64,000 nucleotides of DNA from a virus (taxonomy: Duplodnaviria > Caudoviricetes), in the IMG/VR virus record IMGVR_UViG_2892966740_000006, positions 22,938 through 86,937 of that record. The stretch is one strand, 5' to 3'. Positions 9,388 to 41,592 of this stretch are shown here, in pieces. The notes below the pieces were generated by a model that did not search any database, was not told where the DNA came from, and was given only the letters and a program-made list of their open reading frames with translations. Within the stretch, counting starts at the first letter, position 1. Each line of letters begins with the position of its first letter. The translations under genes were made by a program, and so were the position numbers.

Positions 9388-9402
9388 TGCTGTCCTTTGG
9401 CT

Positions 9403-9457
9403 GCTCATCAGTACCGGACCACCACGCCCGGCAGACCACCCTTGCGGGCGGTTTCGC
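9403..9457 (-). ncRNA. Hammerhead ribozyme (type II topology)
   Basis: GC GAAA C-stemIII-GUC-stemI-CUGAUGA GC, with the full catalytic core. Confidence 0.88.
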
Positions 9458-9461
9458 TGGG

Positions 9462-18589: not shown

Positions 18590-18693
18590 CGGCCTGAATC
18601 GGCCTGAAATCCAAGCCTGGCGCGGATTATCCCGCATCATCCCGGCTCATCCCACAGACTATCCCCCTGTGCAATTCACCTCACCACACCACA
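18590..18693. repeat. Mu-like left end with phased ATCCC repeats
   Basis: ATCCC at 18629, 18639, 18649, 18661; GGCCTGAA twice; terminal CA. Confidence 0.7.
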
Positions 18694-19681
18694 CTTGCTC
18701 AAGAAGGTCTGTCGCGCCTTTCGCTCGCAAGTCATGAAAGTGAAATCGGCGATTTCCCGCCGCCTCCCGTGCTCGCATTATTTTCTGCACCAGAGCATTG
18801 AATCCGCTGTCGGTGTATGGTTTGCCAGTCCTGCTTGAAACGAATAAATACCTAGATCCGGATGGTCTAGGGAGCTTTTTCGCTTCAGCTACAGCTGCCA
18901 TTAACTTTGGCGCCCACCCTATCAGTACGGTAACGGGTCGGCTGTTCCTGGTTTTTAGCTGACGAACTAAAAGCCCGTCGTCGCTTATTGCATCAAGCGA
19001 CAGGCGCAATACGTCTTGCCTACGCTGTGCCGCAAGATAGGCGATTTCGAGGGCTGATGCGACGACCTTCCCTGTGCGCAATGTATTGCCATAGTCCTTG
19101 TTTGTCGCCTTTCTGACACCATCCTCACGTTCAGTAAGCATTCCGTGCCTTAGCTCACGAGCAAAGCTGATGAATCTATCGAGTTCATCATCATCGACGT
19201 ATCTGTCGCGGGGCAACTCTTTGTTGCGCGTTACCCCTCGGCATGGGTTGCTTTCCACGATCCCCCAGCGCATTGCCATTGTAAAAACATGGGAGAGAAG
19301 CGCTTTCTCTCGATTTCCGGCCACTGCGGCGCCCTTTCCTGCCCTATAGTCGAGATATTGGGCAACGTGAACTGGCTTTATTTCATCAGGCCTAAAATCA
19401 CCAAATGCTGCTTCAAGCAGCTTCATCTGCCGCTCTTGGTCCATTCGCGTCTTTGCCGCCTTGGTTGGTAACACCTCGACTGCATAACGGTTGAAAACAG
19501 CAGCCATCCCCTGTGAAGGCATCCGGCATGGTGCTTCCAGTTCTACCCACCGTCTTTTTGCCTCCCCCAGATCAGCAGATAGTCGAATCCATTTGTTTGC
19601 TTTGGTGACGTAGTAGTACGCGCCATTTTTTCGGTACATACGCGGAGGAAGGTCGCGATTTTTTAGACGGGGTCTTGCCAT
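18694..19681 (-). pseudogene. int: Tyrosine integrase truncated by the Mu insertion
   Basis: R and HxxR (FHDLRAK) present; LGH...Y catalytic end missing, replaced by Mu-end sequence. Confidence 0.88.
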
Positions 19682-22795: not shown

Positions 22796-22999
22796 ATCGA
22801 ACTCCAAAAAAAATGAGGCCGCTCGGGCCTCGTTATTCCTTATCCTGGTATCGCTGACCGCACTGGTCTGAGCAGAACTCGTCAAAGTGATGCCGCACCC
22901 TATGACGCCCGGTGATCGGGTCACGGTCCTGCTGTACGACTTCGTGGATGACGCGATCCTCTATCGGCTTTCCGCAGTGCGGGCAGCGTGGGAGTGTGT

Positions 23000-23697: not shown

Positions 23698-24178
23698 TCA
23701 CATCACCAGCACGCTGAAGCGCGATTGCAGGCCGATTGGGGAGAACGGGATGTCGTCATCAAGATCGTCCATCTTCTTCGGCGCTGGATCTGGCTGACGT
23801 CGAGGCGGCGCAGCCGGGGCGCTGTGCTGCTCACCTGCCCCATCACGCCCACCCAACATTTGCATACGGTCGCCGCGAATCTCCGTGCTGTAACGGTCCT
23901 GGCCGGTTTCTTTGTCCTGCCATTTGCGCGTACGGATCGAACCTTCCACGTACACTTGCGAGCCTTTTTTCAGGTATTGGGCTGCAACTTCGGCTGTTTT
24001 GCCAAAGAACACGACACGGTGCCATTCGGTCAGCTCTTCACGCTGGCCGGTTTGCTTGTTGTTGTACGTGTCGGTGGTGGCCACGGACAGTGTGGCAATG
24101 GCGTCGCCTAAGCATGTAACGCGTTTCAGGATCGCGGCCAAGGTTGCCGACGAGGATCACTTTGTTGACTGATGCCAT
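23698..24178 (-). CDS. ssb: Single-stranded DNA-binding protein (frameshifted)
   Basis: [39 protein letters not shown]. Confidence 0.92.
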
Positions 24179-24827
24179 CAGGCTGCTTCCTTTTCGTCAT
24201 CCGGTATTGCCTGCAAAAAACAGGCTTTTAAGTTTTCGTAAGCCGTTTGTAATCGTTGCTTTTCGCTTTCCCCACAACGCTTCCAAGCTCCGCCAAAAAT
24301 CCCTTGCAGGCTTGCAAGGTCAGCACATCCTTGCATTGCCTCGATCGCCATATCGACTTCTTCGGCCTGCATGGCCGCGTTATCTTTTTCCTCTTTTTCA
24401 GCAAACTCTTTCTTCAAAGAGGTTACGTACTTGTTGTCATCGAATAGCCCCATGAACACATCAGCACTAAACCCAATGTGAGAAAGCCCCTTTGTCAGCG
24501 CGTCAGTTGTCGCCTTCTTAGCCGCATCGTCATCAAGCTTTCCTTTGGCGTTAAGAATTTCGGCAAGGCCGCGCCGGGACCAAAACAGTTACTGCGATCG
24601 CCATGCCATACAATCACATCAGCAGCAGCAAGAACGATGCTTCCTGCTGTGACAGTTGAATGCTCTACTGTGTATCCCCATCCCTGCCCCACAGGCCCGA
24701 ATGTTTCCGTTGCCCGCATCACTTGGTAGTGCGCATCGATGGCGGTGAATTTACGGCCAAGACTTACATCTTTTGTGTGTCTTGGGTCTGTCTTGCTTAC
24801 TTTGTTCCAAAGGTCCATGTTTGACAT
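24178..24827 (-). CDS. Rad52/Sak-like annealing protein (frameshifted)
   Basis: TAIDAHYQVMRATETFGPVGQGWG...ADVFMGLFDD. Confidence 0.7.
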
Positions 24828-25011: not shown

Positions 25012-25527
25012 TCAGCGCCAAGTTATGGCGCACCTCGATGTGCGCACCGGTATTTGCTGGCCGTCTTTCAGCAGCTTCTTGACGTCAGCTTTGCGCACGG
25101 CCCAGCTGGCTGGGACGTACTCTTTTGCCGTGTTCGGGATAAGGCTTTCGTCGTCGATGATGACGGCCTCGCTCTTGCGTAGCCCCATGGCGATTTCGCT
25201 ATCCTTTGGCGTGATGGCGCGCTCCAGCATCACCTTGACGGCCAGTGACGCCAGATTGTCTTTGCCTCCTTCTAGCGCCTTCTTGCGGGCTTGCAGTGAC
25301 TTGATGCGCTCGTCCAAAGCTGCCGCCTCGGCCTCTTTGTTCTTGATCACCTTGGCGTAGTTGAGCAGCTTGGTTTCAATGTCCCCAGACTCGCCTTCCA
25401 GTGTGTCCAGATAGATTTGCTTTGCTTGCTCCTCTGTCAGCTTCCCTTCTGCTACATCAGCAGCAAGACTGGCCGACAGGCTGGCTTCCATCTCAGCAAA
25501 GGCTCTGTTCAGTTCAAAAAGGTTCAT
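25012..25527 (-). CDS. Siphovirus Gp157 family protein
   Basis: MNLFEL...IKNKEAE...KADVKKLLKDG. Confidence 0.8.
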   Translation of the reverse strand: MNLFELNRAFAEMEASLSASLAADVAEGKLTEEQAKQIYLDTLEGESGDIETKLLNYAKVIKNKEAEAAALDERIKSLQARKKALEGGKDNLASLAVKVMLERAITPKDSEIAMGLRKSEAVIIDDESLIPNTAKEYVPASWAVRKADVKKLLKDGQQIPVRTSRCAITWR

Positions 25528-26066: not shown

Positions 26067-26353
26067 GCCGCCTTCCTTTGCATCATGCACTTCGCGTAGT
26101 CTTCTGCCGCCACTTCAACAATCGCGTCCAATGCCTTCTTGGCTAGGCAATCAGGTCCAGCGCTGACAAGTGCGAGAAAGTCTTCGAGCATGGGGCCGAT
26201 TTCCTGTGTCCTACCAATCACATCCCCATAGTCGATTCCATCGCTCATGTATGAGCGTTTCAGCCTCTCGAATTCGGCCTTCTTGTCGGCGTCACGATCC
26301 AGCTCCTGCAGGTGCCTAAAAAGGTCATTCATCACTGCGCACGGGGCGTTCAC
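26063..26353 (-). CDS. Phage hypothetical protein
   Basis: ORF tiled in operon. Confidence 0.6.
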   Translation of the reverse strand: MNAPCAVMNDLFRHLQELDRDADKKAEFERLKRSYMSDGIDYGDVIGRTQEIGPMLEDFLALVSAGPDCLAKKALDAIVEVAAEDYAKCMMQRKAA

Positions 26354-26840
26354 CGCCGCACCTCATGCACAGGAAGGCCGTTGCGGCCGAAGTAGCGAAA
26401 GCGCAAGCGCAGCCCTTGCTCGCGGAGTTGGCTGGCCATTTCATCCGTCACCCAGCCGATGATTTCGGTAAGAGTCATGGTGTATTCCCCAAAAAAGAAC
26501 CCCGCACATGGCGGGGCTAGGTTCAATCACAAGGGAAAGCCGGTGAGGCTTCTGGCCGTCCGGGTTTACGTAGACCGAGGAGATGGATAGTGACCAGTCG
26601 CCTCAACGGTTTCCCCTCAAAAAGATGGGCGACCCGAAAGCCGCCCCAAGTCAACGCTCGTTACAAAGGAGAGTCGATGGTTACCCATCATCAAGCGCAC
26701 TCCGGCTACTGGACTGTGGCGTCCCACTGGTCGCTTGCTCACGAAATGTGCTTGAGGATGGGGGCTGGCCTTTAACCTCGCCAGCGCGGAGGCCGTGGTA
26801 AACTCAATTTCCACATGTCATCAACCACGGAGATGCCTTT

Positions 26841-26975
26841 ATGCAAAAATTTTCCGATAACACACGCGGGCACGTTCCGCGTACCCCTCCTCCGCCCCCT
26901 CCTAACTCTTCGGGATTTGCGAAGGATCATGCGCCGAGAATGCCGCCACCACCGCCGCCACCGGCAAAAAAGTGA
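26841..26975 (+). CDS. 44-aa polyproline microprotein (not in ORF track)
   Basis: RBS GGAG; MQKFSDNTRGHVPRTPPPPPPNSSGFAKDHAPRMPPPPPPPAKK. Confidence 0.65.
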   Translation: MQKFSDNTRGHVPRTPPPPPPNSSGFAKDHAPRMPPPPPPPAKK

Positions 26976-26983
26976 GGTAGTAA

Positions 26984-27461
26984 ATGGATCGTCACGAAGT
27001 TGAATTCCAGCTTGATTACTCAATCATCATTGAGGAAATGCAGCTAATCCTTATGGGAAGAGCTGATCGATTCCTGACGTTTTTCCAGTTTTTACTGGGG
27101 AGTGCGGCAGCTGGTGATATTTTTTCAATCAAGTTTATTGGTTTTGTTGTGGCGATCTGTGCTGCATTGCAGTTTGTTTACCAACCAGCTTCAAAAGCGA
27201 TGGAGGCCAAAATCCAGCGCGATCGATATTTGTTACTGAAAAAACAATCGGTAGAGATGAGCACTGAGCAATTGGATTTAGCATTAAAGGATGTCTTGCC
27301 TATTGATTCAATTATCCCTAATGCGCTCTGCCATCCTGCTTGGCTGGCTACCTGCTTACAACAGGGAAGGCCAATTGAAGATCATGTAAAAAAGATGACA
27401 TGGATGGAGTCTTTCCTTTCCGGCTTGCAAGCAGGAGACCCGTTCTGGATAGAACCTCATA
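26984..27461 (+). CDS. Two-TM membrane protein (SLATT-like architecture); 3' end approximate
   Basis: RBS GAGG; two TM helices then helical tail; lower GC. Confidence 0.7.
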
Positions 27462-27805
27462 ACTCTATTGCGTTAATCAGTGGTGGAGCTCCCGGAAGGG
27501 CTTCCGGTACTGTTTTCTCTCCTCCGCACATGACGACCGAGAGCGGGTCGTTGAAGTCTATCCGCCTGATGGCGGCCAGCGGTGCGGTACGCTGGTCATC
27601 GCAAACCAACACAGCTGCACGCTCCCACACTGAAATACAGACAAATACAAGGAAGAAAAACGGAGCGTGCATGTGTGTTGGTGCTGCATCCCGCCATTCC
27701 GTGCAGCGGCTGTCACTATTTCCCGGCCCTTACAGGTCGGTGCCGTGGCGAGTCGGCGTTGGGTTATGCTGGTCTTTAAAGACGCCAGCGCGGTCTCATC
27801 GGCAG

Positions 27806-28111
27806 TTAAGTCCGCCGCTCGCCTTGGTGCTCAGTTGGCGCATCCAGCTTCGCGGCTTTTTCGTAGAGCCGCATCATTCTGCGCATCAGTTTTTTGTAGT
27901 AATCGTCTTGGTGGTACTTGCAGACGTCACCCGGATAAATCATGAAACCGTTTTCGTACTCAGGGTGGCTGCACTCGCACTTCCCGCGAAGCTTCGATTT
28001 GATCTCTGCTTTGCACGCAGACTCAAAGCTAAACCATCGTCGCCCACCGCCGCGCCAAACAACGGCTACTTCTTTTCTTGGCAGCATGTTGGCCTCCTCG
28101 TTAAACATCAA
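27806..28111 (-). CDS. Hypothetical protein, first gene of pL operon
   Basis: RBS GAGGAGG; Cys/His motif. Confidence 0.6.
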   Translation of the reverse strand: MMFNEEANMLPRKEVAVVWRGGGRRWFSFESACKAEIKSKLRGKCECSHPEYENGFMIYPGDVCKYHQDDYYKKLMRRMMRLYEKAAKLDAPTEHQGERRT

Positions 28112-28361
28112 AACCCCCTGTCACGAAGCTTTGATGCTGGCCCTGTTGCCAAGGCCTCCCAGCCCCTCCGCTCGTCATCTGGAGTTAAGGGCCTTCCCAT
28201 CGGTGCGCTTACGTTCCACGCGCATTGACCACCGCTCATGGGGCTTCTGGGGCTGGGTGTGCAGTCTTGCGCCCGTCTGCCTGACGGTACGCCCCGGACT
28301 GGGCGGGTGCTTCTACTGGGTTGTTTGAGATCGGTGCCCGGTGTGCTGGGCTGATGGAGTG

Positions 28362-28402
28362 AATATACACAAACGTGTTTCTTGGTGTCAACACATTTGT
28401 GT
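28362..28402 (-). promoter_or_regulatory. pL/oL
   Basis: TTGACA-N18-TATATT; operators ACACAAACGTGT and ACACATTTGTGT match oR sites. Confidence 0.75.
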
Positions 28403-28600
28403 TATCAGGATGTGTTTTTTGTGTCATGGAGATACAGCTACGTGTAGGTTGGTGTTGTATGGACGCAAAAAAGCCCGCGAACGCGGGCTGGATGGTGCGA
28501 GCCTGCCGCACCGGTTTTTACCCGAATGGTTAGATCCCGTCCGGAGTGTAGTTGGTGTGCAGCCTAGCTGCTGTCGGAGCAAGCCTATCTATGGATAGTC

Positions 28601-29161
28601 TCAATCTTGCAGTTTAACTAACTTGCCGTTTCGGTATCGGTATAAGACCCCGTAGCCTTGCGTTCCAATGGGAATAAAAACTTCACCGGACCGGAAAAAG
28701 ACCTTGTCTTGCCCGGTATCTGACATTAGACGAACCCATTTACCATTACGAAGGGAAAATACTTCAACTACCGATTTAAAGTGCTCGGTATCGCAATGCA
28801 CAACAGCTACTTGTTTTTTTCCGTCCGTTCCAAGTGAAATCTGGGCCACTTCAATTTGAGAACCATGAATGCTCTCTAAGTTATCCAAGCTTACCGGAAG
28901 TGCTTTTATTGGCAATTGGTAAGCAACGTTTGCGCCATCTCTTGCTGTGAAATAACCGATTTCACCACGGGCGCGCGGAATTATATCGACGTCATACAAA
29001 TCGCCATCTTGCTTGAATTTTATCTTCAGTTCTTTAAATGTTCCATCACGGTCAAGTTTAGTAATCTTGGTGGGGACACTGGGATCAATGCAGCGAGGAG
29101 CAGCAGCGGCTATCGTAGAGGCCACGGAAAGAGTGATAGCTGCGATATGAAGTAATTTCAT
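28601..29161 (-). CDS. Secreted hypothetical protein (moron)
   Basis: Signal peptide; low GC. Confidence 0.7.
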   Translation of the reverse strand: MKLLHIAAITLSVASTIAAAAPRCIDPSVPTKITKLDRDGTFKELKIKFKQDGDLYDVDIIPRARGEIGYFTARDGANVAYQLPIKALPVSLDNLESIHGSQIEVAQISLGTDGKKQVAVVHCDTEHFKSVVEVFSLRNGKWVRLMSDTGQDKVFFRSGEVFIPIGTQGYGVLYRYRNGKLVKLQD

Positions 29162-30002: not shown

Positions 30003-30854
30003 TTACTTCATATACTTAGCAATAACATCATGTTTTACTTTAAAATAAGAAAACCCAGACTTTAGCGTGATGCAACATTCATCACCACCCACATGTAAAT
30101 CTGCAATTTTGTATCTACCCTCCGGAATATATCCATGATCCGCGCCATTATAAAATGGTTCATGCATCACCATATCTTTAGGTATCTCAACAAACCCTTT
30201 ATCGATCCATCTATCGTACAGCCATGTAAAGTCTGCAAAAATCCTATTATTTGGTGGATTTGTTATATTTCTTCGCTGGATTATGAACGGTTCAGAAATA
30301 TCATAAACGCCAATTAGTATGCTTCTCAAGCTGCTCTTCATTAGCATCTCATCCAAGTCACCGTTTTTAATTCCGATAGCAATAAATTCCAAATAATTAA
30401 GTATATAGCGTACGGCTGCGACTTTCTCTTTATCATTAGTGTCTTCGCTAGCAATTAGCTCCAGTGACATCTTTCTTGTTTTACCGGATGCAGTCATGAA
30501 GCATTTATTAAGCATTTCAACATTTTCCATATACTTTGCTGACAATCTAGTCTGTAGCAATGTATTTATAGTATGTTGCTTAATTGAATTTCTAATAGTA
30601 ACCATGGAGCTTGTAATCCAACCTGCGACCGCCGCATATGCCGCAGTTAGAGTTACCCATGACTGTGCATTAAACTCTGATGAAGTAAGTGGAAATGTCT
30701 TTGGAAGTAAAAAGTGCCAAGCAGCAAAAATAAAATACGCACATGAGACAAAAATAAGCAAAAGACCCAGCGCTCGGCTGGGTCTTGTGAAAGTCTTTAC
30801 AGTATTGAAGTTAATCAATTTATACAGCCTTTGCTCCGAGGCCTTCACCTTCAT
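30003..30854 (-). CDS. DUF4760-like membrane protein
   Basis: Two TM helices; KQHTINTLL; ILNYLEFIAIGIKNGDLDE; low GC. Confidence 0.8.
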   Translation of the reverse strand: MKVKASEQRLYKLINFNTVKTFTRPSRALGLLLIFVSCAYFIFAAWHFLLPKTFPLTSSEFNAQSWVTLTAAYAAVAGWITSSMVTIRNSIKQHTINTLLQTRLSAKYMENVEMLNKCFMTASGKTRKMSLELIASEDTNDKEKVAAVRYILNYLEFIAIGIKNGDLDEMLMKSSLRSILIGVYDISEPFIIQRRNITNPPNNRIFADFTWLYDRWIDKGFVEIPKDMVMHEPFYNGADHGYIPEGRYKIADLHVGGDECCITLKSGFSYFKVKHDVIAKYMK

Positions 30855-31758: not shown

Positions 31759-32461
31759 CTAGATATTGAAGCTAACGGATACCACCAACCCAACGACATG
31801 CAGCGTATCCGGATCATCTGGCTTAGCGTTGATTTCCCGGTAGAGCTTTTCATTGTCCGAGTGAATTGTCACCGAACCATCCATCTGCTTATAAAGCCGT
31901 TTCACGTAGCATTCGTTGCCCCGGCAGATAACGTGGACCTTCCCATTCGCTATCTCCTGTTGCCGGTGAACAATCAGGCTTGCCCCGTTCGGTATGGTCG
32001 GCTCCATAGAATCGCCCGACGCAACAATACTGAACAGGCTTTCTTTCTTGTAGCCGTGACGCTTCGCCCAGAGCCGTTCGGCAATAGTTAGGGTCGCCCT
32101 TGGTATCAACCTCAAGGATGGGCGTTCCATGGCCAGCTGACGCCTTGAGCGTGTAGCGAGGAACGGAAATTACGGCATCGCCAGCTTCATCTTCCGCGTC
32201 CAGCAACACAACAGGCCGCATTGGCGTGTTGACTGGCAAGCCGAGGTCAATGACCTCCTTCTGGCCTTCTCCAGTTTTCAGCCACTCAGGATTTACCCCA
32301 AGCACCTTAGATAGCTCCAAGGTGAAACGCGACTCGCCGGATCTGTTCTCGATGTTACCGATCGTGGAGGCATGTTTCGCCCCGATTGCCTTGGCAAGCC
32401 CAGCTTGAGTAAGCCCTAGCTCCTCGCGCCGCTCCCTAACTCTATCGCCGTATGTCTTCAT
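31759..32461 (-). CDS. cI: CI repressor, HTH plus S24 (frameshifted)
   Basis: RREELGLTQAGLA, VNPEWL, ASGDSMEPTI, VKRL. Confidence 0.9.
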
Positions 32462-32463
32462 GA

Positions 32464-32536
32464 ACACAATCGTATCTGCAAGTTCTATCACATGCGTGTC
32501 AATATCCTTGCCTTCAAATACACAATCGTGTTTAAT
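32464..32536. promoter_or_regulatory. oR with three operators and pR
   Basis: ACACAATCGTAT, TCACATGCGTGT, ACACAATCGTGT; TTGCCT-N17-TTTAAT. Confidence 0.75.
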
Positions 32537-32543
32537 CTGTGTC

Positions 32544-32738
32544 ATGGACTGGATCAACGTTATCTCCTCTCTCAAGGCAGCAGGACTCTCGCTTGAAGAA
32601 ATAGCTAAAGAGGTCGACTGCTCTGTTTCTCTACTTCGGGCGCTATCTCGTAAAGCGCGAGGAAAGCGGCTCTCTTACGACGTCGGTCGGAAGCTTGAGT
32701 ATCTGTATGAGAAATACCGACAGCCTGACGCTGCCTAA
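32544..32738 (+). CDS. cro: Cro-like HTH protein
   Basis: GLSLEEIAKEVDCS; divergent from cI. Confidence 0.8.
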   Translation: MDWINVISSLKAAGLSLEEIAKEVDCSVSLLRALSRKARGKRLSYDVGRKLEYLYEKYRQPDAA

Positions 32739-33458: not shown

Positions 33459-34303
33459 GCGCCGCAGAGAAGATCATCAGCCTGGCAGAGCGCCGTGCAG
33501 CCATTGCCCCGGTCGAAGGGAAGAAGCGCATGCAGGACGGTTTCACCGCTATTCCGAATGACGTGGAGGACGCACTGCTTCGCTCCCCGCTGACGCATCG
33601 CCAAGAGCGTGTATTCCGCGCCATCCTGCGCAAGACGCTTGGCTTCAACAAGACCGAAGATTGCATTGCCACCACACAGATTTCAGAGCTAACTGGAATT
33701 GATGAATCCCCGGTTCGCAAGTGCGTCAATGATCTGGTTGACATGGGATTGGTTGCACGGGGTCGACGCACAAAATTTGGGACGTTCATCACCCCAAATC
33801 TTGATGTTTCATCATGGAATTTCAAACAGGACGAATCGTCCCGTTTACCGTCCCAAACAGGACAAATCGTCCCGAATAAACAGTACGATTTAGCCCCCCA
33901 CAAAAGACAATTACAAAAGACAGTTAAAGAACCTAACGGTTCTTCGTCCTCGGCCAAGCCGAAGACCGACAAAATCGCCTGCCCACATGCACAGCTGATC
34001 GACCTGTATCACGAAGAGCTTCCTACCTGCCGACAAGTCCGTGAGTGGAACGATGCTCGCAAGAGCCTCATGCGTGCCCGCTGGAACGAGAAGCTGGCAG
34101 CTGGCAAGTATCACGACTTGCAGACTGGACTTGCCTACTGGCGCCGGTTCTTTGCCTACGTCAACCAATCCGACTTCCTGACCGGCCGCTCAGAACCGGG
34201 CAATGGCCGCAAGGTGTTTGTTGCTGACCTTGAGTGGATCATCCGTCCGACCAACTTCGCCAAGATCGTTGAGGGCAAGTATCACGAGGAGGCTGGCGAA
34301 TGA
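33455..34303 (+). CDS. Replication initiator (lambda O-like)
   Basis: DGFTAIPND...ILRKTLGFNK...ADLEWII..NFAKIVEGKY. Confidence 0.9.
   Translation: MSAAEKIISLAERRAAIAPVEGKKRMQDGFTAIPNDVEDALLRSPLTHRQERVFRAILRKTLGFNKTEDCIATTQISELTGIDESPVRKCVNDLVDMGLVARGRRTKFGTFITPNLDVSSWNFKQDESSRLPSQTGQIVPNKQYDLAPHKRQLQKTVKEPNGSSSSAKPKTDKIACPHAQLIDLYHEELPTCRQVREWNDARKSLMRARWNEKLAAGKYHDLQTGLAYWRRFFAYVNQSDFLTGRSEPGNGRKVFVADLEWIIRPTNFAKIVEGKYHEEAGE
33823..33897 (+). repeat. Replication origin iterons inside O
   Basis: CAAACAGGACRAATCGTCCCG twice plus a degenerate third copy, then A-rich tract. Confidence 0.75.
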
Positions 34304-35676
34304 TCCCCCTGCACAGCCATGAATCTGAGCAGTCCGTCATCGGCGCGATGCTGATCGACCCTCGCCGCTTGGATGACGTACTGGACGTGATCTCCTCTTC
34401 CGACTTCTACGACCCGAGCCACCGAACGATTTTCGGCGCCATTGAGGCCGTCCACCTGAACAAAATGCCGGTGGATGTGGTGACGGTTGGCGAGCAGCTG
34501 GAAACGCGCGGCGAGCTGGAGGCGGCTGGCGGATATGGCTACATGGCCGATCTGGCAAAAAACATCCCGTCGGCAGCCAACGTCATGCGCTACGTGAAGA
34601 TCGTCAACGAGCGCTCCCTGCGCCGCCGCCCTGGTGAACCTTGGCGAGCAGCTGACGGTTTCCGCGACCGAAGTCGAGGACGTCGAGGAGCTGATCGAAT
34701 CCAGCATCAAGGCGATTGAGCAGGCCCAACCGGAGTGTAGCGAGGACGATCTGGCCACCGGCTCCGACCTGTGTGCAGAGGCCCTGCAATTTGTCACGGA
34801 ACGCTTCGAGAACAAGGGTTCGATTGGCGGCGTGCCAACTGGATTCATCGACGTGGACAAGCGCCTGCTTGGCATGAAGCCGGGTGACCTGATCATCGTT
34901 GCTTAAGCCGCCCCGGCATGGGTAAGACCGTGTACGGCCTGAACATCGCCAACCACGTTGCCGACCACTCCGGCCCGGTGCTGTTCGTTTCGCTGGAGAT
35001 GTCCAAGCTGCAACTTGGCCTTCGCCAGCAGGCCAACTTCGGCGGCATCAGCATGACGGCCTTGCAAGAAGGCAATCTTGACGCGGAGGACTTTAACTTC
35101 CGCCTGCCAAATGCCGTTCGCCGGGCCACGGAATCCCGCCTGTATTGCGACTTCCGCTCTGGCCAGACCGCCGCGCAAATCCGTGCCAAAGCCAAGGCCG
35201 TGAAGCGCAAACACGGTCTGTCCATGATCGTGATCGACTACCTCGGCAAGATGACCGCGCCCCGGGCAGAAAACCGCACGAACGAGGTACGGATGATGGT
35301 TTCCGCACTCAAAGACATGGCGAAAGACCTGCAAGTGCCCGTCATGGCGCTGGCCCAACTATCCCGCAAGGTTGAGGACCGACCCAACAAGCGCCCGATG
35401 ATGTCCGACCTGCGCGACTCCGGCGACATCGAGCAAGAGGCCGACGTCATCCAGTTCCTATACCGGGACGAGTATTACGACCACGACAGCCCACACCGCG
35501 GATACGTGGAGGTCATTACGGCAAAGCAGCGCATGGGTGAGCCAGGCACCGATTTTCTGGTGTTCCAAGGACAGTACAGCCGCATGAGCAACGCCGACAT
35601 GCGGGAGGTTCACCGAATGGATGCTGTCGCCTCGGCCAAGCCATACAGCAAGAAAACACGGGGGTTTGACGCATGA
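34300..35676 (+). CDS. DnaB-like helicase (three fragments)
   Basis: EQSVIGA, Walker A (AG)RPGMGKT broken by GCTTAAGC, VIDYL, SDLRDSGDIEQEAD. Confidence 0.92.
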
Positions 35677-38762: not shown

Positions 38763-39163
38763 AAAACTTACCTCTTTTCAGTTGTAAATGTATTAGATGT
38801 CGTGGCTTTTTCGATAAATACAAGCCAATTAATGCTATAGGGGTAATCCATGCACATGGAACACGCCAAGCCGGTACTCGACGCCTGCCACCTGCACGAA
38901 GGCCAGCATGTACTGATGGCATCAGGCCGAGCCGCACGTGTGGCTGACGTAGGCCAGCACGCCATACGCTTCGAGTACCGGAACAGCGCGGGCCGGATGA
39001 CTACATCGTGCTGCCACGTCACCGGGTGCCTGAGATGGTGCGGGTTTAGGCTATTCCGAAGGTACAACACTGCATCTAATCGCCTCGCTTATGCGGGGCG
39101 TTTCTGTTTTTGGCCTCGCTATTTTCTGCGGGGCTTTTTTACGTCCATCCCATTGGAGAAACT

Positions 39164-39682
39164 ATGGACAATTTGATGGAGCTTTCATTCGAGAATCAAC
39201 CGCTGCAACTGATTGAGCACGACGGACGGCTGTGGCTGAAGTCTGCTGATATTGCTCGCGCGCTGGGTTATGCGCGATCCGATCGAATGGGGCGTGTTTA
39301 CGATCGACACCAGGCGGAATTCTCCGCGTCGATGACCACGATTTTACGGACCCCCAGTTTGGGACGTGGATCGCCGCCTTTGGAAGAGCGCCTGTTCAGC
39401 CTGCGCGGCGCCCACCTGCTCGGCATGTTCGCCCGTACTGCAAAGGGTGTGGCTTTCCGCCGCTGGGTACTCGACCAGCTTGAAAGCATCGAGGCACAGA
39501 ACAAGGCCAACCGATCGCTGATGGCAGAATGGTATGAAGCCAAAGCAGAACTCGATAACCAGCAGCGATTCGCCAGCCTATGCGGAAAAGGATTGAATGA
39601 CCACAGGCGGCGAAAGCCAACACTAACTCAGCGTGTGATGCAGATTGCTGACCGCATACAGCCTTCACTGCTACTCACCTAA
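39164..39682 (+). CDS. BRO-N antirepressor-like protein
   Basis: WLKSADIARALGY...RLFSLRGAHLLGMFART...FRRWV. Confidence 0.85.
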   Translation: MDNLMELSFENQPLQLIEHDGRLWLKSADIARALGYARSDRMGRVYDRHQAEFSASMTTILRTPSLGRGSPPLEERLFSLRGAHLLGMFARTAKGVAFRRWVLDQLESIEAQNKANRSLMAEWYEAKAELDNQQRFASLCGKGLNDHRRRKPTLTQRVMQIADRIQPSLLLT

Positions 39683-39804: not shown

Positions 39805-40365
39805 ATGCCGAAATGCGGGGCATCAACCCGCAAAGGCGGGAAGTGCCAACGCGAGGCGCTGCACGGCAAGCGCCGATGCGCCTTGCATGGCGGTAAAAGC
39901 ACTGGACCTGTAGGACATAAGAACGCCGCCAAGCCGGGCAGCCTCTACAGCACCTACATGACGCCAGAAGAGCAAGAGATAGCCAGCCAGCTGGAGCTTG
40001 GCCGCGTCGATGAAGAGCTACGGCTCACCCGGATACGGCTGATGCGTGCACTGAAGCTGGAGCAAGAGCGCGGCGGCACGGCGGAACTGGACGAGCGCAT
40101 CGAGCGCGATGGTGCTGAAAACGTCTCGGCGCGAATGGAAGAGAAGTACAAGGTCCGCGACTACGCCGGGATGATCGACAGACTGACGGCGCGGATTGAG
40201 TCGCTGGAGGCACGTCGGGCATATCTGATGGGGCAGGAGCAAGAACGCCGAATGCGCGAGCTTGATCTTGCCGAGAAGGAGCGAGCTGCGTCCGGGTTGA
40301 TGGGTGGCGTGGACTTTACGGTACGCCGAGCTGGCGAGGAGTTGGGCGATGCGCCGTCAAATTGA
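39805..40365 (+). CDS. Terminase small subunit (HGGxSTG)
   Basis: CGASTRKG...RCALHGGKSTGP. Confidence 0.85.
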   Translation: MPKCGASTRKGGKCQREALHGKRRCALHGGKSTGPVGHKNAAKPGSLYSTYMTPEEQEIASQLELGRVDEELRLTRIRLMRALKLEQERGGTAELDERIERDGAENVSARMEEKYKVRDYAGMIDRLTARIESLEARRAYLMGQEQERRMRELDLAEKERAASGLMGGVDFTVRRAGEELGDAPSN

Positions 40366-41592
40366 CATCCGCCTGACCGTTCCGCAAGAGGACTTCGTGT
40401 TCTCGCCTGCCAAGTTTCCAGCCTTCGTCGGCGGGTTTGGAGCCGGAAAGTCAGAGGCGCTGGTCACACGCCTGCTGTTGCTAAAGCTGCGCTACCCCGG
40501 AAACGATGTTGGCTACTTCGCCCCGACCTATGACCTGATCCGCCTGATTGCCTGGCATCGCTTTGCCGAGAAGCTGGAGCAGTGGGGTATCCCGCACAAG
40601 CTCAACAAGTCGGAAAACACTCTGGCTGTTCATGGTGCGGGCCGAGTGATCTTCCGCACGCTCGATAACCCCGACCGCATCGTCGGCTTCGAGATCGGCG
40701 ATGCCGGAATCGATGAATTCGACACACTGGCCGAGAAGCAGGCCGACAACGCCCGGAACAAGGTTTTGGCGCGCTGCGCAAGAAGCCTGACGGACTGCCC
40801 AATACCTGCTGCGTGGCGACCACGCCGGAAGGCTTCCGTGCGACGTACCGCAAGTGGGTGAGGGACGCCAAGGCCGAATATGCACTGTACCGCGCGCCCA
40901 CGCTGTCGAATCCGTACCTGCCAGCCGATTACGTCGATGGGCTGCGCCAGACCTACCCGCCTAACCTGCTGTCGGCCTACATCGAAGGCCAGTTCGTCAA
41001 CCTGAACTCCGGCGCGGTCTACCCAGACTTCGACCGCCAACTTAATGGCTGTGACACGCTGATACAGCCGTTCGAACCCATCGACGCGGGGGTGGACTTC
41101 AACGTCTACAACTGCACGGCCATCCTCTACGTCCAGCGTGGCGACGAGTACCACGCTGTCGGCGAGCTGACCGGCGTCAGGGATACACCGACACTGGCGC
41201 GGATGCTGGTCGAGCGCTTCCCGGATAACCCGGTGACGGTCTACCCCGACGCCTCTGGGCAGGGGCACAAGTCGGTCAATGCGGCGCTGTCCGACCTCGC
41301 CATCCTGAAGGCCGTGAGCCTTACGGTGCGGGCGAACGGCACTAATCCCGCCGTGCGCGACCGCCGGCCGCGATGAACGCGCTGATTCAGGACGGCGCCG
41401 GGCGGCGACGGCTAAAGGTCAACACGATGGCCTGCCCGAAATACACCGAGACACTGGAGCAGCAGGCATACGGTCCGAACGGCGAGCCGGACAAGACATC
41501 CGGGCTTGACCACGCGGGCGATGCCATTAAGCGGCTATCCGGTGGCCTTCAAATTCCCTGTGCTACGTCGCGCAGGCTTTACCGTGGCGTAA
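40349..41592 (+). CDS. Terminase large subunit (frameshifted)
   Basis: GGFGAGKS, IDE, TTPEGF, GVDFN, YPDASG, DHAGDA. Confidence 0.9.

Follow-up and report, generated by a model that had tools for sequence, protein, structure and literature searches.

A proline-rich micropeptide gene and a remotely SLATT-like membrane protein gene as a probable two-gene module of temperate phages

The SLATT proteins, which Burroughs and colleagues reportedly defined in 2015, are two-transmembrane (2TM) effectors of about 150 to 180 amino acids with an N-terminal helix, a membrane hairpin, and a cytoplasmic helical tail, and they are found on mobile elements (NCBIfam models SLATT_4 and SLATT_1; an example is SLATT-5 of DRT10/UG17). 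We analyzed a gene pair that recalls this family in a stretch of 64,000 nucleotides, positions 22,938 to 86,937 of the IMG/VR virus record IMGVR_UViG_2892966740_000006 (Caudoviricetes), which we refer to as the window. The pair consists of a micro-open reading frame (micro-ORF) encoding a proline-rich peptide of 44 amino acids and, directly downstream, a gene for a two-helix membrane protein with the layout just described. SLATT proteins are presented as effectors in the account of the tested defense system DRT10 (10.64898/2026.04.29.721553), and a pair of a reverse transcriptase and a SLATT protein, together with transmembrane effectors, is mentioned for P2/P4 elements by Rousset et al. 2022 (PMC9122126). 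In contrast to these systems, the family analyzed here is accompanied by no reverse transcriptase, cyclase, TIR, or SLOG partner but by a proline-rich micropeptide only. A literature search returned nothing on the pair or on STM2734, and no case in which a SLATT-like protein has a proline-rich peptide as its neighbor; supplementary tables lay outside this search, and the hotspot tables of Rousset et al. could list the cassette.

Several further systems share single features with the pair. The 2TM effectors of the cyclic-oligonucleotide-based antiphage signaling system (CBASS; PADLOC model PDLC00712) are matched by some members of the membrane protein family, but not by the protein of the window, and no cyclase or other CBASS gene was found in the flanking ORFs. 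Type II toxin-antitoxin modules that act by abortive infection likewise place a small upstream gene in translational coupling with a larger downstream gene on a mobile element. However, the upstream product here is a peptide of 25 to 64 residues with no recognizable DNA-binding fold, and toxicity of the downstream product is our hypothesis. The prophage exclusion genes (rexAB of lambda, sieB of P22 and lambda, and old and tin of P2) also lie in or beside the early or immunity region, with their own expression signals and a membrane component, but we detected no sequence relation to them, and none is known to have a proline-rich peptide partner. Polyproline leader ORFs of the SecM and TnaC type are short upstream ORFs that abut the gene they regulate, and the peptide of the window contains runs of six and seven prolines, which require elongation factor P (EF-P) for translation. 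In contrast to such leaders, a whole clade of the present family lacks Pro-Pro, no RNA switch was found, and the conserved part of the peptide is an alternating PxPxP stretch, not a stall motif whose distance to the stop codon is constant. Finally, the peptides appear to resemble the animal proline-rich antimicrobial peptides oncocin, pyrrhocoricin, and Bac7, which are short, with a hydrophobic or aromatic-Pro-Arg-Pro core followed by a proline-rich stretch. Several of the phage peptides, including that of the window, are cationic; they differ from the animal peptides in being phage encoded and made inside the bacterium, and those of the Fels-2 type are acidic overall.

The micro-ORF of the window is a real open frame whose sole in-frame start is the ATG at 26841 (Table 1). 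Its product contains two copies of the motif H-x-P-R-x, followed in one case by six and in the other by seven prolines, and has neither a signal sequence nor a hydrophobic segment. The two repeats agree in 9 of 11 residues but in only 20 of 33 bases; the arginine is encoded by CGT in one copy and by AGA in the other, and the 15 proline codons are mixed (seven CCG, four CCT, three CCA, and one CCC). When all 3.35 Mb of the genome are translated in six frames, runs of at least six prolines occur three times, and two of the three lie inside the micro-ORF, which is far beyond chance. The TGA of the micro-ORF overlaps the GAGG ribosome-binding site that stands directly 5' of the membrane gene ATG at 26984. 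The first-pass annotation, made from the sequence of the window, had described the repeats, the mixed codons, and this junction, and each was found as described. An ORF on the minus strand (26772-27023) was rejected as a real gene, as it mirrors the proline codons and its length is not conserved in the closest relative.

To what extent the two genes occur together was assessed in related loci. The membrane protein family is sparse: six-frame searches located it in 1 of 60 relatives, in 9 of 400 genomes of the order besides the window's own, and in 3 of 399 genomes of the class, and a tblastn search of 50,697 phage records found it in two, Fels-2 and the Elizabethkingia phage EKP1. In 16 of 19 diverse loci, the family gene is preceded on the same strand by a short ORF that has its own Shine-Dalgarno sequence and a proline-rich C-terminal half, and whose stop codon lies 4 to 19 nucleotides before the main start or overlaps it. 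We applied a pairing rule that demanded a same-strand micro-ORF with at least six prolines in its last 25 residues, whose end adjoins the start of the homologous gene. This rule was satisfied at 11 of 14 family loci and, among 170 ORF starts drawn from the same DNA as controls, at 6. Across the 19 loci, 13 contain a peptide with at least six prolines by this rule, 17 contain PxPxP, 14 contain Pro-Pro, and 11 contain a run of three or more. The five loci with no Pro-Pro at all include the whole Fels-2 clade. Upstream of homologues, a proline-rich micro-ORF is conserved, but polyproline is not a general feature of it. One locus (L015) has no separate micro-ORF and another (L014) is weak; the row for L017 comes from an unpublished genome, and nothing rests on it. 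Paired loci include Fels-2, the Elizabethkingia (Flavobacteria) phage, in which a 48-amino-acid ORF is annotated at this position, and three class-level relatives. Fusions of peptide and membrane protein are rare: an N-terminal extension of at least eight residues was seen in 4 of 108 proteins and was proline rich in one of these.

The closest relative of the window's pair (locus L002) shares 45% identity in the membrane protein, as well as the two-repeat peptide and the junction of stop codon and ribosome-binding site. Upstream of the cassette, an 80-nucleotide block of this locus is 84% identical to 26755-26834, though the coding DNA can no longer be aligned. The two-repeat type of peptide was confined to this locus and to contigs of three metagenome runs (X1 to X3) in searches for related loci in genome, viral, and metagenome collections, and a word-based protein search with the peptide returned no word-sharing homologue. 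Among 61 Fels-2-like viral contigs, in which the main protein is 99 to 70% identical, a micro-ORF of 26 codons is kept in 60, with nine distinct peptides, and ends 9 nucleotides before the main ATG in 59. A copy of the Fels-2 type is present in 40 of 5426 complete E. coli genomes, always in the chromosome, and distant copies occur in five plasmid or phage-plasmid records. In the RefSeq entry for E. coli NC101, the 152-amino-acid membrane protein is annotated and the micro-ORF is not, and the Fels-2 record annotates an ORF on the wrong strand in its place.

We then compared nonsynonymous with synonymous change per site (pN and pS) in the two genes. Over eight pairs of Fels-2-type loci, pN/pS was 0.10 to 0.31 in the micro-ORF and 0.07 to 0.26 in the main gene, with synonymous change near saturation in the distant pairs. 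In divergent loci of this type, upstream in-frame stop codons fix the start at the conserved ATG. Between the window and its closest relative, 23 of 41 aligned peptide residues are identical, 16 of them through different codons (pS, 0.82; pN, 0.33). Judged by these comparisons, both genes are under purifying selection, in keeping with the selection at the protein level that the mixed proline codons had been taken to show. The peptide and membrane genes thus travel together across distant phages, as a two-part system should, and we regard it as highly probable that they form a real, conserved two-gene module.

In the window itself, the membrane gene is not intact as assembled. From the ATG at 26984, the frame continues past 27461 without a stop codon and reaches 28228, giving 414 amino acids, and the TAA at 27460-27462 is out of frame with the ATG. 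Contigs of X1 and X2, two metagenome runs of one study, are 95 to 99% alike and contain one base more than the window after 27421 and 8 bases fewer at 27459; when the window sequence is read in the frame set by the extra base, it ends at this TAA. In our own reading of the alignments, the C terminus of the repaired frame appears to align without gaps with the family's C-terminal motif, which is conserved and lies a few residues from the protein end. Since the added base restores both the family C terminus and the stop codon, an assembly error is probable. The two-helix protein ending at 27461 that had been proposed from the sequence is therefore borne out in its membrane hairpin, but its end fits the repaired frame only. 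We do not regard the 414-amino-acid ORF as a genuine fusion protein, for the family has a median length of 157 amino acids, and the surplus crosses a terminator-like site and is antisense to the phrog_21496 gene.

The break may have a systematic origin. CCAGG and CCTGG occur at 0.21 and 0.25 of expectation genome-wide, a 4- to 5-fold depletion, whereas CCCGG and CCGGG stand at 1.23 and 1.27. Long-read base callers can drop a base at methylated motifs. Three phage genes of the window (terminase large subunit, DnaB-like helicase, and exonuclease) are each broken up, and the pieces of each align with consecutive parts of the same profile. The depletion of CCWGG and the split genes suggest either that the assembly systematically lost single bases or that the prophage is decaying. 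We consider the long frame to be an artifact, most likely of a one-base loss at a methylated motif, and hold this to be considerably more probable than a true mutation. The competing explanation, that the cassette is a decaying pseudogene in this genome, with the base at 27421 truly missing and no functional membrane protein made, is unlikely in our estimate, though far from negligible. It accounts for the frame that crosses the terminator, for the further split genes, and for the completeness of the genome (three contigs, 80.6%). However, the break corresponds to a change from CCTGG in the related contigs to CCGG, the depletion affects CCAGG and CCTGG and spares CCCGG and CCGGG, as a base-calling loss at a methylated motif would, a CCGG also lies in the terminase junction, and the micro-ORF and the first 146 codons of the membrane gene are intact. 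In practical terms, single bases seem to be lost from this assembly at CCWGG sites, with false frameshifts and long false ORFs as the result. The sequencing runs that carry a large share of the stretch all belong to one study, and the source sample of the genome may be among them; two runs (X3 and X11) leave parts of the stretch without cover. No RNA run is among the sequencing runs listed as carrying the stretch.

The membrane protein of the window matches phrog_6315, a phage protein family of unknown function, with an E value of 7.9e-20 (residues 2-137 on profile positions 3-138 of 152), and a full HMMER scan gathered 107 representative relatives. An AlphaFold2 (AF2) model (predicted local distance difference test score, 93.9) places helices at residues 3-43, 49-66, 68-91, 94-107, 113-126, and 140-150, in which a long N-terminal helix runs into the first hydrophobic helix and is followed by a 5-residue turn, the second hydrophobic helix, and four more helices. 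The basic residues after helix 2 would place both protein ends in the cytoplasm. The model thus contains the two-transmembrane hairpin with flanking cytoplasmic helices that characterizes SLATT proteins, with the topology read from the distribution of charge. Profile matches point the same way: among 61 aligned members, SLATT_4 was matched, weakly and over the hairpin region, by 21 (best E value, 3.6e-5), SLATT_1 by 7, and the 2TM "Effector" model PDLC00712 by 8 (best E value, 2.8e-8). Pfam gave SLATT_4 for one member at an E value of 0.11 and DUF4231 for another at 0.097. In a protein atlas, the nearest clusters are nameless, and the cluster at rank 20 has SLATT_4 on 12% of its members. No solved structure gave a specific match, as Foldseek against the PDB gave no match at an E value of 0.001 or below, and a wide VIA-align comparison reached a best Z score of 7.4, to generic helical hairpins. 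Near relatives are lacking: a megablast of 26700-27600 against phages and E. coli genomes gave no match, and a word-based protein search with the membrane protein found nothing, as none of its 13 candidates scored. On this evidence the likeness to SLATT is remote, and by score and gene neighborhood the protein falls outside the family; it may nevertheless work in the manner of SLATT-type effectors and descend from them. The earlier label of a SLATT-type protein is accordingly kept as a resemblance and dropped as a classification.

Table 1. Positions, in window coordinates, of the cassette, its signals, and the phage genes discussed in the text
Feature	Position	Strand	Remark
26-nt repeat, copy 1	26764..26789	.	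Just upstream of cassette; direct repeat D1, 85% identical to copy 2
Putative extended -10 promoter element	26796..26804	+	Within block 26755-26834; TGn plus hexamer proposed by us, consensus scan made no call
Shine-Dalgarno sequence GGAG of micro-ORF	26830..26833	+	8 nt before ATG 26841; kept in L002
Proline-rich micro-ORF, 44 amino acids plus TGA	26841..26975	+	In contigs of runs X1 to X3, one synonymous change (26912) and 0 gaps
Repeat 1, H-x-P-R-x-P6	26871..26903	+	Codons 11-21
Repeat 2, H-x-P-R-x-P7	26928..26963	+	Codons 30-41
GAGG ribosome-binding site of membrane gene	26974..26977	+	Overlaps micro-ORF TGA 26973-26975; same junction in L002
SLATT-like two-helix membrane protein gene (phrog_6315)	26984..27462	+	This end needs one added base near 27421; as assembled to 28228
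Hydrophobic helical hairpin	27062..27181	+	Residues about 27-66; AF2 model
CCGG (frame break), CCTGG in related contigs	27420..27423	+	Base inserted behind 27421 in X1 and X2
Terminator-like hairpin with T-rich tail	27492..27515	+	Hairpin 27492-27507; ends cassette
26-nt repeat, copy 2	27768..27793	.	Downstream of cassette; missing downstream in L002
Integrase	18659-19681	-	
SSB		-	
Gam-like protein	25012-25527	-	
phrog_21496 gene	27806-28111	-	
cI-like repressor	31889-32575	-	
Terminase large subunit, two pieces	40304-40861 and 40813-41376		CCGG at 40825 within junction
Regions of split genes (terminase; DnaB-like helicase; exonuclease)	40304-41376; 34300-35676; 24178-24827		

On both sides, the neighbors of the cassette in the window are lambdoid prophage genes on the minus strand, while the genes for replication and the head follow on the plus strand farther to the right (Table 1). 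The pair is thus antisense to the early operon, as had been noted from the sequence. The same reversal against both neighbors was seen in Fels-2, in E. coli NC101, where the pair lies between two Fil-family genes, in EKP1, where it has the holin gene on one side and an antitermination gene on the other, and at several loci in genomes. The flanks of 13 loci contained the P2-type replication protein A (GPA) at two loci, the phrog_4 repressor family at two, and a CI-like family at one, as well as genes for a tail chaperone, a HicB-like protein, GmrSD_C, a DNA methylase, a UmuC-like protein, and IS1595. The sites of the cassette are prophages and mobile islands.

We propose that the pair is a conflict module in which the membrane protein has the peptide as its trans-acting partner and which serves the prophage against other phages; we put the probability of this statement as a whole, including that of the module, at about 0.45. 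The cassette would be an accessory "moron" of a lambdoid prophage, in which a promoter region and a terminator of its own enclose two translationally coupled genes. As it opposes the early-left operon, it could be expressed in the lysogen while that operon is repressed and would be run over by transcription upon the lytic switch. The first gene would encode a soluble peptide with a polar head, an aromatic or histidine residue, and an alternating PxPxP stretch, which in the window appears to have been duplicated and expanded to P6 and P7. The second would encode a protein of about 159 amino acids, a two-helix membrane hairpin with a cytoplasmic helical domain. The peptide presumably stays in the cytoplasm, the side where both ends of the membrane protein are predicted to lie, and as the only partner it could be either a labile inhibitor that holds the effector closed or a bait or trigger. 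In the inhibitor version, a shut-off of translation would lead to loss of the peptide and free the effector. In either case the outcome would be abortive infection or the exclusion of other phages.

A number of observations weigh against this proposal. In the assembled window, the frame of the membrane gene is broken. When eight relatives were scored singly, all remained below the curated cut-offs, with a best score of 26.1 bits for SLATT_4 (cut-off, 55) and of 17.7 for SLATT_1 (cut-off, 41), and the protein of the window itself had no match among the Pfam, NCBIfam, and PADLOC models, PDLC00712 included. No partner for nucleotide signaling or nucleic acid synthesis (SMODS, SLOG, TIR, reverse transcriptase, or cyclase) was found in the 55 flanking ORFs of the 13 loci, which cover about 1.5 kb on each side, or among the neighbors in the window. 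The peptides vary between clades in charge and in Pro-Pro content, and a single binding mode is thus not obvious. At two loci (L007 and L008) the pair is co-directional with its neighbors. Purifying selection on the peptide would be expected equally of a nascent peptide that acts in cis, and the literature search found no experiment on any member of the family.

A cis-acting role is the substance of one alternative, in which the micro-ORF would be a leader only: its translation, slowed at the proline-rich codons and EF-P dependent in the variant of the window, would set ribosome arrival or re-initiation at the membrane gene, and the released peptide would have no function. The tight spacing of the two genes in most loci, the overlap of TGA and GAGG in the window, the frequency of Pro-Pro and longer runs across the table of loci, and the tight dosing that a membrane toxin requires are all consistent with this. 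However, the Fels-2 clade keeps its 26-codon length and its low pN/pS without any Pro-Pro, the main gene has a ribosome-binding site of its own, and the distance from the proline stretch to the stop codon varies between loci. Nor did the RNA offer a switch: the folds of the junction at three loci (z scores of -0.53, -1.09, and -0.63) were no better than those of shuffled sequences and shared no structure, and Rfam had no family above chance in 26300-28600. We therefore consider a leader without a functional product quite unlikely. The suggestion that the family as a whole senses translation stress through polyproline and EF-P failed on the loci without Pro-Pro and on the lack of an RNA switch; it fits the subfamily of the window only.

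A second alternative grants the peptide a role in trans but not a suicidal one. Here the peptide and the membrane protein would form a small inner-membrane complex that, as in lysogenic conversion by Sie-like proteins, blocks superinfection or alters host physiology without killing. The location in prophages, the reversed orientation, the terminator, the stable carriage of Fels-2-type copies in E. coli chromosomes, and the lack of a sensor enzyme in the flanking ORFs would all be explained. However, in the AF2 model the loop between the helices is about 5 residues long and leaves almost nothing in the periplasm, where DNA entry is usually blocked, and the only family likeness is to 2TM effectors of the suicide type; we judge this alternative to be improbable. 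That the frame of the micro-ORF is open merely by chance, in GC-rich DNA beside a genuine membrane gene, is scarcely credible, for although it is short, unannotated in E. coli NC101, and devoid of word-sharing homologues, its length, frame, spacing, and residues are conserved despite saturated synonymous change, and it is strongly enriched over the control starts.

The conflict module proposed above can be stated in a more far-reaching form, as an immune switch reduced to two genes and widespread among the temperate phages that infect Pseudomonadota and Bacteroidota. The polyproline-II peptide would be its sole sensor, a steady supply of which, dependent on translation and in the P6/P7 variant on EF-P, keeps a SLATT-like pore shut until an invader's shut-off of translation opens it. 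In this specific form we think it doubtful that the proposal is correct. A bolder version still would have the peptide act on the ribosome as well, as the animal proline-rich antimicrobial peptides do.

Further features of the window were recorded beside the cassette. The two copies of a 26-nucleotide repeat flank it (Table 1), and none of 100 shuffles gave two matches. The motif also occurs in 12 viral contigs with differing flanks, none of which has the membrane protein family within -300 to +1300 nucleotides, and the repeat was rejected as a part of the cassette on these grounds; it could be a module-boundary or regulatory sequence of the phage group. A 32-letter contig of the wastewater run X11, an RNA-Seq run by its library record but flagged as "probably DNA," matches 26764-26792 at a depth of 57.5. 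Downstream of the cassette there is a 21-nucleotide inverted repeat (27605-27625 and 27662-27682, 90% complementary), at which the contigs of runs X1 to X3 stop matching and continue with sequence unlike the window, with loose ends at 27605, 27614, and 27662; the site has the look of a mosaic prophage joint. On the minus strand, two strong terminator-like hairpins (26646-26627 and 26518-26498) stand a short way outside the cassette, where the early-left transcript passes.

In the wider surroundings, a minus-strand ORF of 186 amino acids (28601-29161) has a hydrophobic N-terminal segment, no family match, and a GC content of 0.43 to 0.45, below that of its surroundings. An AT-rich stretch (GC content, 0.35 to 0.38) between the cassette region and the cI-like repressor contains a minus-strand gene for a 283-amino-acid protein with DUF4760 (30003-30854; E value, 3e-33), which probably belongs, as one more accessory gene, to the immunity region. 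Upstream of the terminase genes, the plus strand carries an Ant-like anti-repressor gene (39110-39682), and at 9395-9459 on the minus strand there is a full-length match to the Rfam Hammerhead_II ribozyme (72.3 bits against a gathering score of 37; E value, 4e-13).

The window adds a subfamily in which the motif is duplicated and the prolines form true runs. It extends the pairing both to class-level relatives and to a Bacteroidota phage, and it supplies a composition-matched control for that pairing and an explanation of the false 414-amino-acid frame. Annotation in its present state misses the peptide, as the RefSeq entry for E. coli NC101 illustrates. The module is easily testable, being about 700 bp long and present in E. 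coli prophages, and the copy of the window with its P6 and P7 runs and the Fels-2-type copies, which have no Pro-Pro, offer a natural comparison between a peptide that is a partner and a polyproline stretch that is a sensor of translation. If the proposal is true, a SLATT-like effector would be controlled not by a nucleotide signal but by an unannotated micropeptide, and the pair would be among the smallest sensor-effector modules in the conflict between phages and bacteria.

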